Assembly (NCBI GenBank): GCA_052055015.1 | Contig: JBQJIT010000080.1 | Length of the DNA stretch: 33,104 nt | Source: Malassezia furfur | Taxonomy: Eukaryota | Strand: one strand, 5' to 3' | Shown: piece by piece, positions 9,819 through 31,853 of the stretch | Layout of the letters: each line of letters begins with the position of its first letter | Numbering within the stretch: position 1 is the stretch's first letter | The notes under the pieces: model-generated | What the model was told of the DNA's origin: nothing | What the model saw: only the letters and a program-made list of their open reading frames with translations | The model's database searches: none | Made by a program: the position numbers and the translations under genes

Positions 9819-10357
9819 TTAGTAGTCGTTCTTCGGGCGGAGCAGCACATTGTAGTTCCCTGGGGTAAGTCGCTATTCCACATACGGTGCTGAATGAGCC
9901 ACTGGTCCACGGGCGGGGCGCCGTTCTCGCCGGGCGTGCGCGTCACGCGGAAGTCGCCCTCGACGTACATCAGCGTACTACAGGTCAGCTGAACACCACG
10001 TACCCCTTGGGCAGGTCACGCAGACGGTTCACCGTCGTCTCACCGAACGCAAAGATCGAGTGGAACGAAGAGGTAGGCTGGGCGGGCGCTGGGTAAGTGA
10101 TTCGGCGCAAACACGTACTGCCATCCTCGTTGGGCGGGCCAAGCGGGTCGGTGGTGGCCACGGTGTAGCGGAGGTACTCCTTGCCCGAGCGCGTCTCGCG
10201 CACCTCGGGCTGGCCCACGAGGCGGCCGATGATGTTCACACGGGCCAGCTGAGCAGCCGAAGTCGACGAGAACGACTGTGGTGTTAATTGTGCAACACTT
10301 CATACATACCCGGGCGTTGACATTGCGAGCAGCAGAGAGGAGCGACTGGCGGAACAT
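9819..10357 (-). CDS. RIM1: Mitochondrial single-stranded DNA-binding protein
   Basis: Presequence MFRQSLLSAARNVNAR|SFSST followed by an SSB OB fold: IIGRLVGQPE...YLRYTVAT...LPKG|TLMYVEG. Four introns of 34, 30, 26 and 26 nt. Confidence 0.85.
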
Positions 10358-10477: not shown

Positions 10478-12076
10478 CTAGTAGCGTGGCAGCTCGACGC
10501 GGCCGCCCTTTTCCATCCACTCCGCGATGCGACGAGACACGGTAATCTGGCAGGTGAGCCGGCTCGATGCGCGGCGGTCGATCGCGTATTCGAGCATGTC
10601 ATCCTCCTCGTCCGACATCGGACCAAACAGCGCGTCGGCCTCGGCTGGCACGTGGTCCACGTCGCCACGTGCTTGGGGATCCTTCCGCTGGGCGTCACAG
10701 AGGTAGGCATGGCAGGTCGCGCATTCGAGCTCGCCGCCGCACGTAGCTTCAATTGAGGGGAGATCGTGACGCTTTGCCGTCTCCATAAGCGTTTCTCCGA
10801 TGATGCCCTCCACGTCGTACCACTGTCCATCGTAGCCGTGGAAACGCAGCGGCGCATGCGTCGCCTGCGTGCGCGAGGACGGCGCATCGGGTGCCGCGTC
10901 CGCGGGCGCCGTCGATGCCGCCGCAGAGGGCGGGGGTGCCGCTGCAGGTGCGCCGCGCGCGCGCGGTGCAATCTGTGCCGAATAGACCACGGGAGGACCC
11001 CACAAGTTCATGTGTTCGCGTGCGTCCTGCGACGACATGCCAAGCCGTCCGCGCCATCGTGGCCATACCACGAGCCGTTCACGGAGGTCTTGTAAGTCGT
11101 GTCGCGACGACGCTGGTGCGAGAGCCGCACGTAGCAGTAGGCTGGGGTCAGTGGCGTGGTGCGACGTACGGTGCATCCGACACGCGGAGGTTGCCGTACC
11201 AATCGCCGTGGGGGTATACGAGGGCATTGGCAGCCCACTAGGGTGAGTATGCGGGTGACGGACCTTGTGGCCACCGACGTGGCTTATGTCGAGCACGCGC
11301 ACGCGGCGTGCTGGCTCGCTGCCGTCTTGCTTGCACTGGGCGATGTGCTCCTGGACCTTTTGCTGGAGGGCCTCGCGGAGTTCGGTGCCTACCACACCGC
11401 ACCGGCAGTCGCGCGTGCCGTGCGTGCACACGAAGATGTGCGTCTCCGAGTCGAGACGCGCTTCGGGGCGCGCAAAGAGCGCGTCGAGCTTTTTGCGGAG
11501 GGCCTCGCCGCTTGGGAGCGTGCGCAGTGACAGTGGCTCCGGGTATTCGACAAAGAGGCCAGGCGTGCGGTAGGCATACAGCGTAAACGTTTCGTCCTCG
11601 ACGGCCTGGTTGGGCGGCGACCGCATGGCGGCGGCACGATGCGGGTCCCATGGCGACAGCCCTTGGGTGCCGTTCGGGGTGATGGTTGTGTCACTGGATG
11701 CAAAGCTCAGTCCGTAGCCCTCGAGCGAGCCGCCCTGGCGCGCGCGACTGGACAGCTCCGCGTGGAGGGGGCATGCCGCGTCGATGTGCGAGGGCCACGT
11801 CGTGTCTGGGTGCGGGTACTCTCGGGGCAAGAGGATGAGGTGCGTCTGGTACTCGGGCGCCGATCCGGGCAGCGGCGACAAGTCGTACGGCGCCGCAGGA
11901 ATGTGCCCGTGCTCGTCGAGGGCGCCCGCGGGATCAAACGGGTACTTTTTCCAGCGCTCAGTCGCGATGCCGCGCGATATGGTACGCACGCAGACAGCGG
12001 CGTACCTCGGTGCGAGATGCGGGCCGCGTGCGGCCGTGCGCAGGGCGGGGTGCGTGAGGCGGAGGGCACGCAGCAT
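10478..12076 (-). CDS. Mitochondrial Aim32/Apd1-type (sucrase/ferredoxin-like) protein fused to a C-terminal adrenodoxin-type [2Fe-2S] ferredoxin, about 514 aa
   Basis: Arg-rich presequence; FVCTHGTRDCRCG, SHVGGHK|WAANALVYP, GDWYG and WRGRLG; Ala/Pro linker; CGGELECATCH, EEDDML and SRLTCQI. Introns 11238-11263 and 11142-11169. Confidence 0.85.
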   Translation of the reverse strand: MLRALRLTHPALRTAARGPHLAPRYAAVCVRTISRGIATERWKKYPFDPAGALDEHGHIPAAPYDLSPLPGSAPEYQTHLILLPREYPHPDTTWPSHIDAACPLHAELSSRARQGGSLEGYGLSFASSDTTITPNGTQGLSPWDPHRAAAMRSPPNQAVEDETFTLYAYRTPGLFVEYPEPLSLRTLPSGEALRKKLDALFARPEARLDSETHIFVCTHGTRDCRCGVVGTELREALQQKVQEHIAQCKQDGSEPARRVRVLDISHVGGHKVRHPHTHPSGLPMPSYTPTAIGTATSACRMHRTSHHATDPSLLLRAALAPASSRHDLQDLRERLVVWPRWRGRLGMSSQDAREHMNLWGPPVVYSAQIAPRARGAPAAAPPPSAAASTAPADAAPDAPSSRTQATHAPLRFHGYDGQWYDVEGIIGETLMETAKRHDLPSIEATCGGELECATCHAYLCDAQRKDPQARGDVDHVPAEADALFGPMSDEEDDMLEYAIDRRASSRLTCQITVSRRIAEWMEKGGRVELPRY

Positions 12077-14430: not shown

Positions 14431-15493
14431 ATGCTTCTTCTGCGTAGCGTGGGCGCTGGACTCGGTGCGCGCCCTGTGGCGCCTTGCGCGACTGCAATGC
14501 GCGGTCTGCGCACGTCGTGTGCGGCGTACGAACAGGACCGCAACACGCACTTTGGCTTCCGCACCGTGCAGGAGAGCGACAAGGAGACGTTGGGTACGTG
14601 TGCCATCCCTCTGACGCAGTCGGCTCCGTGTTCTCGTCGGTCGCCTCGTCGTACGACATGATGAACGACGCCATGTCGCTCGGCATCCACCGCTTGTGGA
14701 AGAACCACTTCGTCGAGATGCTCAACCCGCGCGGCGGCATCCAGTGCCTCGACGTGGCGGGCGGCACCGGCGACATTGCGCTGCGCCTCCTCGACCACGC
14801 GCGCACGAAGCACCTCGACCGCGAGACGCGCGTCACCGTGCTTGACATCAACCCGCAGATGCTCATCGAGGGCCAAAAGCGGCTCAAGGAGACCATGTAC
14901 TGGAACACGCCGCAGATCAAGTTCCAGCTCGGCAACGCCGAGGCGCTGGACAAGACGATGGAGGTGCCCGAGCGCCCCAACCCGCCCGCAAGCACGCGCA
15001 AGAACCCCATTCTGCCGCCGCTCGTGAGCGAGCCGATCGCAAGCGAGTCGATGGACCTGTACACGATCGCGTTCGGCATTCGGAACTGCACGCACATCGA
15101 CCAGGTAATCCGTGAGGCCTACCGCGTGCTCAAGCCGGGCGGCATCTTTGCGTGCCTCGAGTTCGGCAAGGTCTCGGTGCCGTTCCTCGCACAGTACGTC
15201 GCCCTATTGACTCACCCAGGCTGTACAAGCAGTACTCCTTCTCGGTCATCCCGCCGCTTGGTCAGCTGCTCGTCGGCGACCGCGAGTCGTACCAGTACTT
15301 GGTCGAGTCGATCGAGCGCTTCCCAACGCAGACCGAGTTTGCCAACATGGTCGCCGACGCCGGCTTTCTCTCGCCCGGCTCCGTCGAGGCGCAGTCGATG
15401 GGCTTACCTCGTCTCAGCGGGCCGAACGGCGCGTACGAGGACCTGTCGCTCGGCATTGCGACGATCTGGACCGGTATTAAGCCGTTTGCATAG
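14431..15493 (+). CDS. COQ5: Ubiquinone biosynthesis C-methyltransferase Coq5
   Basis: THFGF, VFSSVASSYDMMNDAMSLGIHRLWK, LDVAGGTGDIA, YTIAFGIRNCT and ESYQYLVESIERFP. Two 26-nt introns. Confidence 0.95.
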
Positions 15494-15506
15494 TCTACGG
15501 TAGACA

Positions 15507-20520: not shown

Positions 20521-22311
20521 TTATGCCCCCATCCGCTCCCGGTTAATCTCGGGCGTCTCCGAGGGGTCCACATGAGGGGTCTTACCGAGACCCAGCCAGC
20601 TGCCGAGCGACTGCCACCACGGAATGGACGGCTGAGTCTGGTTGTTGGGAAGGTATTTGTACATGAAGTCGCTGTACACCGGGAACCAGGTGCGCAGCGC
20701 AAACTTCCACTGCCAGTCAGGGTACACGGCAGTGACACGGCCCGACTTCGGGTCGCGGTACCACGAATCGCACGTCGTGAAGACGAGCTCCTTCATCCGC
20801 TTGACGACCCAATGCTGCTCATCGAGCTCCGCCTTGAGCTTCACGTCGAAAGTGGGGACGTGTGTCAGTTGCGTCGTGGCCTTGGTGCCGGGCAGGTGTG
20901 CGATATCGGCGTCCGACGGGCGCGGAGACTCCAGCACGGGCTTGGCAATATACATAGTGAGCTCTTGCTGGCGCTCCGAGGTGTAAATCACCGACATGTG
21001 GCCCGTGCCCGAGTTGGGGCCAACGAGCATCGACATGTTCGGGAAGCCGGACAGGAAACAGGTGTGGTACGCAATCATACTGCCCTCGCCGTACTTGTTA
21101 AAGTGCTCCATCTGCGTCATGTCCGCGCCGCGGATCTCCAGAGGGAAGCCGGCCATCTGGGGGTTGAAGCCGTTAGCCATGACAATGACGTCTGCAGGGA
21201 GGCGGCGGCCATCGGCAGTGACCACGGCGTTCTCCTCAATCTTGACCAGCTTCGAGGTCTCCAGGTCCAGGTTTTCGCGGTGCAGCGCTGGCAGGTAACG
21301 GTTATCGAGGATGCGTCGACGGCAAGCGACCATCAGCTCGTTCTGCTTGGGCAGCAGCTGCTCTTGGTATTGCTTCGGCGCCGCCCTTTTCACATAGTTG
21401 CGGCACTGCTTTTCCCAGTCGGAGCGCATCATCTCGCCCATTGTGGTGCGTGTCGCCATCGTAAATTGAGACTCGAGGACAAGCCAGATGAGGACGCGTT
21501 GCAGCCACATAAAGAATCTAAAGTGCATCACGAGCCATCGCCAACCGGGGATGTACTCGAGCGGGATCTTGGGCTCGGGAGCGTACCAGTGCTTGGAGCG
21601 CACAAACTGCGTCACATGCTTTGCCTCCTCGGCAATGATGGGGACAAACTGCGTCGCAGAGCAACCGTTGCCCACGACAATCACATTCTTGTCCTTCATG
21701 CTGACCGAGTGGTCCCAGCGTGCGGAATGGAAAATAGGGCCCTTGAAGTTCTCGTGGCCAGGGATGGTGCACGGGTTCGGCTGGGACAGACCGCCCACCG
21801 CCGTGATCATCAGCTTGCACACGTAGTAGTGCAACTTGCCCCGTGCGTCCTTCGACTTGCTCTCCGGCACATCCTCGGCAACGATGTGCCACAGACCGGT
21901 GGCCGAGTCATAGCGGGCCTGACGCGTAAGCACCTTGAAGCGGAACTTGTCCCACAGGCCATACTCGGACACCACCGTGTGCACGTACTCACGCAACTCC
22001 TTCTGTTGCGGGAACATGCCACTCCAGTCCGACTTCTGACGGAAGCTGAAGCTGTACACGGGTGCAGGAATATCACACGCACAGCCAGGGTATGTGTTCG
22101 ATTCCCAGGTGCCGGCTGGGCCAGGGAGCTTCTCCAGAATAACGACATCAGTAACGTTGTGCTTGTCCTTGAGCTTGCACGCAACACTGACGCCGCTCAG
22201 GCCAGCACCGATCACAACTACATCGTGATACTCAGGCTTGAGGTCACCCAGGTTGACAGGGTCTTGTGTGAGCTGAAGACCGTCGGGAAGTGATTGAATT
22301 TCTTCACTCAT
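20521..22311 (-). CDS. Baeyer-Villiger-type flavin monooxygenase
   Basis: GAGLSG, WESNTYPGCACD, BVMO fingerprint FKGPIFHSARWD, GNGCSA and ANGF. Intronless; start taken at MSEEIQ. Confidence 0.9.
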   Translation of the reverse strand: MSEEIQSLPDGLQLTQDPVNLGDLKPEYHDVVVIGAGLSGVSVACKLKDKHNVTDVVILEKLPGPAGTWESNTYPGCACDIPAPVYSFSFRQKSDWSGMFPQQKELREYVHTVVSEYGLWDKFRFKVLTRQARYDSATGLWHIVAEDVPESKSKDARGKLHYYVCKLMITAVGGLSQPNPCTIPGHENFKGPIFHSARWDHSVSMKDKNVIVVGNGCSATQFVPIIAEEAKHVTQFVRSKHWYAPEPKIPLEYIPGWRWLVMHFRFFMWLQRVLIWLVLESQFTMATRTTMGEMMRSDWEKQCRNYVKRAAPKQYQEQLLPKQNELMVACRRRILDNRYLPALHRENLDLETSKLVKIEENAVVTADGRRLPADVIVMANGFNPQMAGFPLEIRGADMTQMEHFNKYGEGSMIAYHTCFLSGFPNMSMLVGPNSGTGHMSVIYTSERQQELTMYIAKPVLESPRPSDADIAHLPGTKATTQLTHVPTFDVKLKAELDEQHWVVKRMKELVFTTCDSWYRDPKSGRVTAVYPDWQWKFALRTWFPVYSDFMYKYLPNNQTQPSIPWWQSLGSWLGLGKTPHVDPSETPEINRERMGA

Positions 22312-22488
22312 GATGTCGTAAGGGAGATGTAGTCGTGCCGATGCCCGCGAATATAAACGTTTTGCCCCACGCACTTTCAACAAGGCACTATCACGTGGCT
22401 CTGGCAACTCCGCACGACGACAAGCGAGGACGGTTTTCACGCCGCCCCAAGATCTCATCGACCAATCATATTACTACAATCTCGAAAT

Positions 22489-26907: not shown

Positions 26908-28483
26908 ATGTCGGCTGTTCGCACCGTACTCTCCTCTGTCCCCCAGCGCGCCGTGCGTGCCTCGGCGACGAGCGCTCGTCTGAGCTCGGTTCGTGCCCTG
27001 GCGACCTCGGCCGTGGCGCGTGAGGCGCCCAAGAGCTCGATTGCCTCGCTGAAAGGCCAGATCCGCAAGGAGCGTGACACGTTCGGCGACCTTGATGTCC
27101 CCGCGGACAAGTACTGGGGTGCGCAGACCCAGCGGTACGTTTCCTGTTTCCTGACGCAGTTCGTCGCAAAACTTCCGCATCGGCGGTGAGGCGGAGCGCA
27201 TGCCGCTGCCGCTGATCAAGGCGTTCGGTGTGCTGAAGAAGGCCGCCGCGACGGTGAACCAGCAGTACGGTCTGGACCCCAAGATTGCCGCGGCGATCTG
27301 CGAGGCGGCCAACGAGGTGATCTCGGGCAAGCTTGCGGACAACTTCCCGCTCGTCGTGTTCCAGACCGGCTCGGGCACGCAGACCAACATGAACGTCAAC
27401 GAGGTCATCTCGAACCGTGCGATTGAGATGCTTGGCGGTGAGCTCGGCTCGAAGAAGCCCGTGCACCCCAACGACGATGTGAACCGCAGCCAGAGCAGCA
27501 ACGACACCTTCCCCACGGCGATGCACATTGCGTCGGTCTTGGAGATCACCCAAGAGCTGCTGCCTGCCCTGCGTCACCTGCGCGAGGCGCTCGAGGCGAA
27601 GCGTGAGGAGTTCAAGGACATTATCAAGATTGGCCGCACCCACCTGCAGGACGCCACGCCGCTCACGCTCGGCCAGGAGTTCAGCGGCTACGTCGCGCAG
27701 CTCGACTCGTCGATCGAGCGCGTCGAGGCGGTGCTGCCGCACCTGCGCATGCTCGCCCAGGGCGGTACCGCGGTCGGCACGGGCCTGAACACGTTCAAGG
27801 GCTTTGACGTGGCCGTCGCTGAGGAGATCTCGCGCATCACCGGCGAGAAGTTCCTCAGCGCGCCGAACAAGTTTGAGGCCCTCGCGACGCACGACGCGAT
27901 GGTCGAGGCGTCTGGTGCGATGAACACCATTGCCGTGTCGTTCATGAAGATCGCCAACGACATCCGCTACCTCGGCTCCGGCCCGCGCTGCGGTCTCGGT
28001 GAGCTGTCGCTGCCCGAGAACGAGCCCGGCTCGTCGATCATGCCCGGCAAGGTCAACCCGACGCAGTGCGAGGCGCTCACGATGGTTGCCGCACAGGTCA
28101 TGGGCAACAACGTCGCCGTGACCGTCGGTGGCTCGTACGGCCAGTTTGAGCTGAACGTGTTCAAGCCGGTGATCGCCAAGAACCTCCTGTCGAGCGTCAA
28201 GCTGCTTGCGGACGGCGCGCGCAGCTTCACGGACCACTGTGTGGTGGGCATCCAGGCGAACAAGAAGCGCATCCACACGCTCCTGAACGAGTCGCTGATG
28301 CTTGCGACCGCGCTCAACGCGCGCCTCGGCTACGACAATGTCGCCAAGGCCGCCAAGAAGGCGCACAAGGAGGACCTCACGCTCAAGGAGGCCACCGTCG
28401 GTCTCGGCCTGCTTACCCCCGAGGAGTTCGACCAGCAGGTGCGCCCCGAGCTCATGCTCGGCCCCAAGGACGCGCCCAAGTAG
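26908..28483 (+). CDS. FUM1: Fumarate hydratase (class II), mitochondrial
   Basis: Presequence; DTFG...[21 protein letters not shown] and signature [15 protein letters not shown]. Intron 27135-27159 (25 nt). Confidence 0.98.
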
Positions 28484-29945: not shown

Positions 29946-31853
29946 ATGCGTCTTCTTTCGTCAGGCCGGCGGGGGCTTGCGTGTGTGCCGAGCGTGGCAC
30001 ACAACGTGCGCCGCGCACAGCTGTATGGCGCCGCACAGGTCAGTGGCACACTGGGCTCCGAGTCCCAGGTGCCCGACAGCCGGTTTTACGCCGAGGTGGA
30101 CGAAGCTCCAGCATCGTCGGCACTCCAGCGCCTGTCGCCCGCCGCGCGACTGGGCAGCAGCCGCGTGCAGGGCACCGCGGCGGTGGGAATGCACGAACCG
30201 CTGCAAGATGCCCTTGCACACCAAGTGCTGCGCGCAAATAAGGCGCAGCTGCGCCACGACGCGGCCCACCTCGCCACGCTCACGTACGCCGTTCAAGCGG
30301 AGACGCGGGGGCTGGCACAGCCGCCGTCAGACGCCTTTATGGACTCGCTGCGCGGCACACGCGCTTCGGCGCTGTATGCGGCTGCGCAGATGCCGGGCCG
30401 CTATGCGGTCCTAGCGCGCATCCTTGACGAGGTGCAGCGGCGCATCCCCTCAACAAGCGCCCAGGGATGGGCGCCCGCCAAGCTCGTCGACTGGAATGCC
30501 CAGGCTTTTGATGCGCTGTGGGCGTCGCTTGCCGTGTTCGGCTCGCTCAACGAATACCATGCCGAGGCATGGTCCAAGGAACTGCTGTCGATGGGTACGC
30601 ACCTCCTGGAGCAGCTGCGCAAGGACGATGCAGCGCTGCGCGCTCCGCTCAGGCAGCTGTATGCGCAGCTGCGTCTGCGCGGCGACAAGCCACACATGCT
30701 GGGCCGTGCGCCGCCCATGCCCACGCAGGGCAGCACGCTAGGTGTGTATGCGTATGGCCTCAGCGGCCTGCCGAACGACGCGGCGCGCGAGCGCCAGGTG
30801 CAACGCATGTGGAAGAGCGACGCCGACGTGCTGGTCCTTGTCGAGTCGGCTACGCCGCGCGGGTTCGCGTGCATTGCGGCCGCGCGCGCCCAGCTCTTGT
30901 CGATGCAGACCGCCGAGCGGCCGTGCCACGTCGTTGCACCGTGCTCCCACGACCGTGCATGCCCCATCCTGCGCATGGACACACTCGATGTGCCGCCGAC
31001 GCGTGCGGTGCCGAGCCTGTGTTCGTACTCACAGATGTACCATGCGCCTGCATTCACGCGCGCGACGCTTGAAGACGCACGCAGCGACCGTGTGGAGGAA
31101 TACTGCTATGTGGTCATGCAGCGCGGTGCACGCCCCTCGCTCACCCACGCCGAGGAGGCATGGCGAGCCGAGGTGCCGTCCGCGGCGCAGCCGCACGTCG
31201 CGGCGGCGGTCGAGAAGCTGGCGCGCGCGTCCCGGCAGGGCATCCTCGACTCGCTGCGTGCCGATGCGCCACGCGAGCTGCAGGACGCCGACGTACCCGA
31301 CACGGACGAGGCGCTCGCGTCGTGCCTTGCGGCGCTCGAGGCCGATGGCGTGGATGCGCGTCGCGTGATGCAGCTCGAGGCGTATTCGTGGCCGCGGATC
31401 GTGCGTACGCCGCTGAAGAAAGGCGGACACGTCACATTCGATGCGTGCTGCCCAAACGGCGCCCTTGAGCGGTTCACACTGGCCAAGTCGGCCGGGCGCC
31501 AGGCGTACCAGGATGCGCGGAAGTCGCGGCAGGGCGAGCTGTTCCCGCACGCGGACAAGACGGGCAGGCCGACGATCCAGCGCGAGGGCGCAGACCTCAA
31601 CGCGCTGCCGGAGCGTCTCCCCGTGATGCGGTCTTCGCAGCGCCCCGCACCGGGCGAGGCGTGCGAGCACTTGTACATTGCGCCGGACGCCATGCTGTAT
31701 GCGCGCACGGCAGGCACAGCGCGTGTGCCGAAACGCACGGCGCGGCGTGCGCCCAAGTGGCACGCCAAGCCCGTCTCGGAGCGCGGCACGCGCCTGAGCC
31801 GCAAGCCGAACCGCGCGCGCCTCGACGAGGAGCTCCACCTGTGGGACGCCTAA
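29946..31853 (+). CDS. RSM22: Mitochondrial small-subunit assembly factor Rsm22/METTL17
   Basis: VLVLVESATPRGF, HVVAPCSHDRACP, WPRIVRTPLKKGGHVTFDAC and AYQDARKSRQGELFP. Confidence 0.88.
   Translation: MRLLSSGRRGLACVPSVAHNVRRAQLYGAAQVSGTLGSESQVPDSRFYAEVDEAPASSALQRLSPAARLGSSRVQGTAAVGMHEPLQDALAHQVLRANKAQLRHDAAHLATLTYAVQAETRGLAQPPSDAFMDSLRGTRASALYAAAQMPGRYAVLARILDEVQRRIPSTSAQGWAPAKLVDWNAQAFDALWASLAVFGSLNEYHAEAWSKELLSMGTHLLEQLRKDDAALRAPLRQLYAQLRLRGDKPHMLGRAPPMPTQGSTLGVYAYGLSGLPNDAARERQVQRMWKSDADVLVLVESATPRGFACIAAARAQLLSMQTAERPCHVVAPCSHDRACPILRMDTLDVPPTRAVPSLCSYSQMYHAPAFTRATLEDARSDRVEEYCYVVMQRGARPSLTHAEEAWRAEVPSAAQPHVAAAVEKLARASRQGILDSLRADAPRELQDADVPDTDEALASCLAALEADGVDARRVMQLEAYSWPRIVRTPLKKGGHVTFDACCPNGALERFTLAKSAGRQAYQDARKSRQGELFPHADKTGRPTIQREGADLNALPERLPVMRSSQRPAPGEACEHLYIAPDAMLYARTAGTARVPKRTARRAPKWHAKPVSERGTRLSRKPNRARLDEELHLWDA

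Follow-up and report, generated by a model that had tools for sequence, protein, structure and literature searches.

An Aim32/Apd1–ferredoxin fusion protein with two predicted [2Fe-2S] clusters in Malassezia furfur and other fungi

The window analysed here, a stretch of 33 104 nucleotides from Malassezia furfur (GenBank assembly GCA_052055015.1, contig JBQJIT010000080.1), carries on its minus strand (12076-10478) a gene of three exons whose spliced product of 514 residues consists of a presequence, an Aim32/Apd1-type domain, a linker and an adrenodoxin-fold ferredoxin. This Aim32–ferredoxin fusion is real and more widely spread than first thought, and it brings together known families in variant form rather than a wholly different system. 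In the model that we favour, with a probability of about 0.55, electrons would pass from a reductase to the ferredoxin, from the ferredoxin to the bis-His cluster of the Aim32 domain, and on to a substrate by proton-coupled reduction. An earlier note on this DNA had read the gene as a Rosetta-stone fusion that points to ferredoxin as the electron partner of Aim32-family proteins; the fusion proved genuine and conserved, and its wide spread much strengthens that reading, whereas transfer from ferredoxin to Aim32 is a putative step.

Gene structure and the Aim32/Apd1-type domain

Both introns sit just past the codon of the second His ligand, inside the Aim32 domain (Table 1). We infer them because a second copy of the gene, on contig C151, retains their splice sites, because the four exon 2 differences between the copies are all third-position changes when the frame is spliced (second-position changes when it is not), and because splicing brings back a segment after the His ligands that is found in relatives; the gene would give a single transcript. 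The intron interiors have diverged between the copies (19/26 and 18/28 identical). The unspliced frame is likewise open in both copies (532 aa), since the introns together measure 26 + 28 = 54 nt and no stop intervenes, and this is probably chance in a GC-rich genome. Three proteins in the databases (P0001-P0003) correspond to this unspliced reading (window 11142-11263) and would lose the conserved post-His segment. The domain junction falls within exon 3, in agreement with the earlier note, which had placed it in a single exon.

Table 1. Features of the fusion gene, with positions in the window and residues in spliced numbering.
Feature	Position	Strand	Remarks
Exon 1	11264..12076	-	Codons 1-271: presequence, N-terminal subdomain, all four Aim32/Apd1-type cluster ligands; PF06999 positions 1-144
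Predicted mitochondrial presequence	11963..12076	-	About residues 1-38, end approximate; Arg-rich
C217-x8-C226, two Cys ligands	11399..11428	-	Both invariant in 30/30 diverse homologues
H266-x-G-G-H270, two His ligands	11267..11281	-	Second His invariant, first at least 90%, in 30 homologues
Intron 1, 26 nt, GT-AG	11238..11263	-	Inferred from sequence
Exon 2, 68 nt	11170..11237	-	Conserved segment past the His ligands; PF06999 positions 145-169, E 0.08 alone
Intron 2, 28 nt, GT-AG	11142..11169	-	Inferred from sequence
Exon 3	10478..11141	-	End of Aim32 domain, linker, entire ferredoxin, stop
WRGRLG, basic end of Aim32-type domain (323-328)	11039..11056	-	W, R, G, R invariant in 30/30
Linker (346-390)	10853..10987	-	Ala/Pro-rich, predicted disordered, no MPP-type motif; pLDDT<50 in homologue P0004
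Adrenodoxin-fold [2Fe-2S] ferredoxin, non-Yah1 type (391-514)	10481..10852	-	Cys codons 10741, 10723, 10714, 10552

Among named relatives the closest are Malassezia proteins, and the 13.7-Mb assembly has the gene twice, with 90% identity between the two proteins, as might be the case in a hybrid. Between the two copies, dN/dS is 0.036 in the ligand-bearing core (residues 210-345), 0.074 in the ferredoxin, 0.17 in the linker and 0.20 in the presequence; selection on the two domains is strongly purifying, and the low values in the core and the ferredoxin argue that the fusion is not due to chance. The first 45 residues contain eight Arg and two Lys against one acidic residue, a composition that agrees with the presequence claimed earlier and suggests mitochondrial import, and a similarly Arg-rich, acid-poor N-terminus is found in 60 of 67 full-length fusions. 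It is this presequence, judged by its composition, that makes orthology with Aim32 rather than Apd1 a possibility, our trees having been built without yeast sequences. A genome-wide PF06999 search matched at least the two fusion copies and, at this lower bound, found no separate cytosolic Apd1 gene.

The earlier note had named two profiles for the protein: Suc_Fer-like (PF06999) did match (E 1.3e-18, 68.2 bits against a cut-off of 34.9), whereas Fer2, although recorded for many homologues, gave no match to the C-terminal domain of the Malassezia protein. The two ligand pairs and the WRGRLG domain end that it had described are all present, and the ligand pattern, C217-x8-C226-x39-H266-x3-H270, fits the published Aim32/Apd1 motif C-X8-C-X24-75-H-X-G-G-H (PMC11138216). 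Across 30 homologues chosen for diversity, six of the eight ligands of the two clusters are invariant and two are at least 90% conserved. In models of the homologues P0004 and P0107, from which the fold matches of both domains were obtained rather than from the Malassezia protein itself, the Aim32 domain has a thioredoxin-like ferredoxin fold matching 1f37 (E 2.3e-3), with Z 14.5 and rmsd 1.9 over 95 aligned residues for a chytrid homologue. The domain is predicted to bind a 2Cys-2His [2Fe-2S] cluster. Conserved Arg residues adjoin the ligands and are kept in unfused forms too (37/39), and a comparison of fused with unfused forms, in which the ligand and WRG columns are 100% by construction of the filter, gave no clear position conserved in fused forms only.

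With yeast Aim32 (mitochondrial) and Apd1 (cytosolic), both of PF06999, the protein has in common the motif, the conserved Trp, the thioredoxin-like ferredoxin fold and a predicted presequence. Unlike yeast Aim32, which ends about 33 residues past the conserved Trp and has no space for a ferredoxin (PMC8482512), it carries an additional ferredoxin of 124 residues. An unfused homologue from Diphylleia (P0177) ends in Leu-Asp-Trp, of the cytosolic Fe-S targeting type (PMC10245660), and is Apd1-like outside the fungi.

The downstream neighbour (about 9820-10357, minus strand) presumably is a mitochondrial single-strand DNA-binding gene, which it resembles; PF00436 and the fusion are joined in two Malassezia records, so the gene order is conserved. 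Elsewhere in the window, an intronless ORF of 645 aa in a lower-GC stretch (20521-22458, +) resembles what we take to be a flavin monooxygenase, and we presume that 14448-15503 (+), 27200-28483 (+) and 29946-31853 (+) encode a Coq5-like methyltransferase, a fumarase and an Rsm22-like protein, all of mitochondrial type.

The ferredoxin domain and its linker

A search of PDB sequences with the C-terminal 124 residues gave 33 matches at E<=0.01 (best 3hui, 1.6e-13), nearly all of them adrenodoxin- or putidaredoxin-type ferredoxins, and the ferredoxin of the chytrid homologue model superposes on 3hui with Z 19.7 and rmsd 1.6 over 107 aligned residues. These matches and the four cysteines (C428, C434, C437 and C491) bear out the intact ferredoxin of the earlier note, and the domain is predicted to bind a cluster. 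Measured against the adrenodoxin-type spacing C-x5-C-x2-C-x35-37-C, the last gap is 53 owing to an insertion of about 17 residues; it is 36 in 119 of 120 Yah1 sequences and also 36 in the chytrid homologues checked.

Canonical YAH1, which the earlier note proposed to look for as a separate gene, is present as two copies (L005 and L006, 97% identical), and the fused ferredoxin is 36% identical (31/86) to the Yah1 of its own genome. A Glu precedes the second ligand Cys in all 131 fused domains that were readable (of 153 two-domain proteins, the pattern failing on 22), compared with none of 120 Yah1 sequences and none of 46 readable short bacterial-type rows; in 113 of 118 fused domains the residue after the acidic helix is Tyr or Phe, where Yah1 has Leu or Met (119/119). 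The helix itself is kept, with four to six Asp/Glu in 89 of 94 readable fused domains. In a quick tree of 100 rows and 109 columns, with 50 of 97 inner branches open, the Yah1 rows (15 of the 120, basidiomycete only) form one branch (support 100, length 0.95) with no fused row inside it; the fused rows are not one clade (six changes), and the tree is compatible with either an early duplication or a bacterial gain as the origin of the ferredoxin. The separate YAH1 copies, the low identity, the diagnostic residues and the tree together rule out an identification of the C-terminal domain with the Yah1 of this genome. In the earlier reading, which set the domain beside Yah1/adrenodoxin, the fold stands but the name Yah1 does not: as judged from sequence, the fused ferredoxin is a distinct lineage. 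It shares with Yah1, FDX2 and adrenodoxin the fold, the C-x5-C-x2-C...C ligands and the acidic helix, but differs from Yah1 in the Glu and Tyr/Phe, in faster evolution, in its covalent tether and, in many basidiomycetes, in the loop insertion.

By sequence and by structure, the best PDB matches are proteobacterial ferredoxins of the FdVI/PuxB/putidaredoxin type (3hui, 1e9m), and three bacterial matches have 45-51% local identity to the fused domain, a likeness that is biased because the bacterial rows were retrieved with the fused-domain profile. After the fungal matches, that search returned mostly short proteobacterial-type ferredoxins (best 120 of 576). Unlike the fused domains these lack the diagnostic Glu, and 44 of 47 short rows form a branch of their own (95); the three 'bacterial' rows outside it are one fungal fragment and two that resemble ISC-type bacterial ferredoxins. 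Tilletia has five stand-alone records of a Glu-type ferredoxin with its own presequence-like N-terminus (P0144, P0156, P0188, P0247 and P0251), four of which group with the Tilletia fusion in the tree (96); the fused and stand-alone ferredoxins both recorded for T. horrida are 78% identical in the domain. Four chytrid proteins (P0092, P0121, P0124 and P0262) have long linkers that hold an apparent second copy of the first beta-hairpin of the ferredoxin.

The Ala/Pro linker of about 40 residues noted earlier is present in the Malassezia protein but is not a family feature, since across 108 fusions the linker has a median length of 17 aa (range 6-86), with many of just 6-20 aa. The S. pombe Etp1 fusion reportedly helped to tie Yah1 to haem A synthesis. 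Etp1 (Cox15-Yah1) and other tandem precursors also have a redox protein N-terminal to an adrenodoxin-type ferredoxin, but Etp1-type precursors use Yah1 itself and contain an internal signal at which MPP cleaves them (PMC8734313), whereas the Aim32–ferredoxin fusion has no such signal and coexists with YAH1. Several mitochondrial tandem precursors are cut by MPP at internal presequence-like stretches, and they often join unrelated proteins (PMC8734313, PMC5881500). With the strict consensus of PMC5881500, used as a motif scan and not as a validated predictor, an MPP motif was found in none of 110 ferredoxin-fusion linkers, and with a relaxed form in two of 110; because the linkers lack an internal processing motif, the fusion probably stays one uncleaved, two-cluster protein. 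Single-chain AlphaFold models of the homologues P0004 (pLDDT 78, pTM 0.70) and P0107 (pLDDT 88, pTM 0.67) have pTM values that lie between those roughly expected if the domains are undocked and if they are docked (0.58/0.75 and 0.59/0.79, by crude arithmetic).

Distribution of the fusion and the smut variant

Among 93 matches of 292-931 aa from the best 8000 candidates, 71 contain both domains, 17 an Aim32 domain with lipoyl synthase and five the Aim32 domain only. Named carriers come from Malassezia, Tilletia, Tilletiaria, Ceraceosorus, Rhodotorula, Microbotryum, Rhizoctonia, Hydnum, Cryptococcus, Kwoniella and the chytrid Zopfochytrium. When 1.84 billion representatives were searched with a profile, the best 150 of 9948 matches included 134 new ones, many of them fragments: 52 with both domains, 72 with Aim32 only and 10 with ferredoxin only. 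Fifteen of 18 two-domain proteins looked up bore an organism name and all were fungal (ten chytrid genera, Gonapodya, Dispira, Mortierella, Calcarisporiella and Melampsora, with phylum placements as we presume them). Another 12 proteins looked up have the Aim32 domain only, and those of them that bore a name came from Artomyces, Cyathus, Clathrus, Allomyces, Spiromyces, Diphylleia and Diplonema. No ascomycete with both domains was among the matches, the search not being an ascomycete survey. In all, 153 of 442 collected proteins have both domains. All three basidiomycete subphyla have the architecture, which recurs from chytrids to basidiomycetes, and a Malassezia-specific fusion is rejected on that distribution.

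A FastTree of 64 Aim32 domains (28 fused, six of the 17 Lip5-fused and 30 unfused) left the deep branches without resolution and the outgroup not monophyletic. Within it, 16 unfused rows, including Artomyces and Cyathus, form a clade (99) inside a group (91) of Rhizoctonia, Tulasnella and Cryptococcus fusions, and the six Lip5 rows form a clade (99) nested in the ferredoxin fusions of Ustilaginomycotina (100). The fusion appears to date from early fungal evolution and to have been lost or replaced several times, with at least two apparent losses of the ferredoxin domain; the unfused forms of yeasts and mushrooms probably arose secondarily, since the fusion is spread across basidiomycetes, chytrids and other early fungi.

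In the smuts Ustilago, Sporisorium, Moesziomyces, Melanopsichium and Violaceomyces, the Aim32 domain is fused in frame to a full lipoyl synthase (P0029-P0043, P0056 and P0061); the 17th record is labelled chicory and is probably a contaminant. Lipoyl synthase seems here to have replaced the ferredoxin at the same junction, and no smut-named match was found with the fused-ferredoxin profile among the best 120 of 576. The Lip5 linkers contain an acid-free run rich in Arg, Ser and Thr (36-55 aa in 15 of 16) that ends in R-x-Y/F-A-T, and an MPP motif was found in one of 17 by the strict scan and in 16 of 17 by the relaxed one; the protein does resemble the mitochondrial tandem precursors and is a probable, undescribed MPP-cleaved member of that class. 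A DNA scan of 80 metagenomic lipoyl-synthase loci found no Suc_Fer-like domain, so the Aim32–Lip5 fusion stands on the 17 protein records (NCBI, ENA and Logan); for P0029, the ESM Atlas gave only lipoyl synthase clusters under 0.9. The Malassezia genome has a free LIP5 (L010), which gave a single match where other genes gave two copies in this fragmented assembly. Seven database records (P0005, P0006, P0013-P0015, P0018 and P0035) are named 'lipoyl synthase' without a radical-SAM motif; for the Malassezia orthologues the name is rejected, there being no such domain, and it was probably carried over from the smut fusion.

Electron flow and its alternatives

Adrenodoxin-type ferredoxins receive electrons from a flavin reductase, which binds the acidic helix of adrenodoxin. 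In the model favoured here, the presequence would be removed on import and the rest left intact, giving one mitochondrial protein with two [2Fe-2S] clusters. The ferredoxin would draw single electrons, through its acidic helix, from Arh1, the NADPH-dependent ferredoxin reductase, and would swing on its flexible linker to hand them to the 2Cys-2His cluster, whose higher potential and proton coupling would serve to reduce a substrate; Arh1 as the source, the direction of flow and the class of substrate are all putative. Each His that takes the place of a Cys ligand raises the potential by as much as about 200 mV and makes proton coupling possible (bioRxiv 10.64898/2026.10.21.760712), so flow from ferredoxin to Aim32 would be downhill. 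The relay is not 'self-contained', as it had been called, because it has no flavin reductase domain and needs an external reductase; a PF07992 search of the genome did not identify an Arh1 gene among 11 unlabelled flavoprotein matches. The substrate would most likely lie in redox defence, in the detoxification of polyphenols, quinones or oxidants or in thiol redox control, a role suggested by the yeast phenotypes: AIM32 overexpression rescues sod2 cells from their sensitivity to primaquine (PMC4683384), apd1 cells show gallobenzophenone sensitivity (PMC11126956), and aim32 cells fail anaerobically and with hydroxyurea (PMC8482512). In lineages without the ferredoxin domain (yeasts, mushrooms and smuts), Yah1 would act in trans. 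Against the model, the ferredoxin is dispensable in several lineages, as seen in the 72 Aim32-only proteins among the 134 new matches, some of them fragments, and in the smut replacement; the Tilletia copies imply that it can exist apart; and the partners reported for yeast Aim32 are Erv1, Osm1 and TIM subunits, with Yah1 never named in the main text (PMC8482512).

That two adjoining genes were simply read as one is very improbable: P0014 and P0018, both from Malassezia, do carry the neighbouring single-strand-binding domain as well, but the junction lies in one stop-free exon in both copies, neither a presequence nor a conserved Met precedes the ferredoxin, and so many collected proteins have both domains. 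Less easily set aside, although we consider it unlikely, is the idea that the ferredoxin borrows the presequence and promoter of Aim32 and, cleaved or not, serves other acceptors such as Cox15, Coq6, a P450 or a radical-SAM enzyme. The same junction took up Lip5 with an internal presequence-like stretch, and fusions there need not mean partnership, since Aim32 was re-fused to Lip5 through a linker that is probably cut; Rsm22-Cox11 and other known tandem precursors, the stand-alone ferredoxins of Tilletia and the repeated losses point the same way. To our knowledge, however, tandem precursors of unrelated proteins are lineage-limited, whereas this fusion is retained from chytrids to basidiomycetes, its linkers lack a strict cleavage motif, and no genome was seen with a Glu-type ferredoxin but no evidence of the fusion in its genus.

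The Lip5 fusions might instead be a second Rosetta stone, in which the Aim32 domain and the ferredoxin, as the fungal counterpart of human FDX1, support lipoyl synthase. We consider this improbable: human FDX1 donates electrons to LIAS (PMC12670532), the Aim32–Lip5 proteins (17/93; six in the tree) form their clade amid ferredoxin fusions, and their Lip5 part is 74% identical to the free Malassezia Lip5, but their linker looks cleavable, the ferredoxin was apparently lost exactly where Lip5 arrived, the swap was a single event, and 'lipo-' terms are absent from the two yeast Aim32 papers searched (PMC8482512, PMC4683384). Still somewhat less probable is that a labile His-ligated cluster acts as a sensor or cluster store, gating or reloading the ferredoxin or passing electrons to it; a redox-switch role has been proposed for thioredoxin-like ferredoxins (PMC11138216, PMC4683384) and Aim32 overexpression partially protects aconitase (PMC4683384), yet the expected potentials favour flow towards the His-ligated cluster and the sequence gives no sign of cluster transfer.

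Aim32/Apd1 proteins have been well studied by spectroscopy, and the literature covered assigns them neither an electron donor nor a reaction. The architecture is known as an automatic annotation (Pfam PF06999+PF00111) and as three ESM Atlas clusters with unnamed function (for P0004), but we found no description of the fusion in titles, the beginnings of abstracts or text passages; the possible exception is Stegmaier et al. (2019, JACS), reportedly the founding Aim32/Apd1 paper, which may note such fusions. By-products of the analysis are the probable tandem precursor of the smuts and the 'lipoyl synthase' database error.

A bolder proposal, which we hold to be rather unlikely, is that fungi ancestrally own a second, Yah1-independent mitochondrial ferredoxin as the private electron line of Aim32, that yeast Aim32 is a truncated remnant relying on Yah1, and that the pathway touches lipoyl synthase, hence the smut fusion; if true, it would parallel the division of labour between animal FDX1 and FDX2 and put a name to the chemistry that bis-His Aim32/Apd1 proteins perform. 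Under the favoured model, with flow from reductase through ferredoxin to Aim32, Yah1-Arh1 would be expected to reduce yeast Aim32. The analysis brings to light an overlooked second family of mitochondrial ferredoxins in Malassezia, Cryptococcus, Rhodotorula and chytrids, and a fusion found across most of the fungal tree offers a specific candidate donor and a ready two-cluster protein for stopped-flow and EPR work, which makes the question of what reduces the Aim32/Apd1 cluster directly testable.
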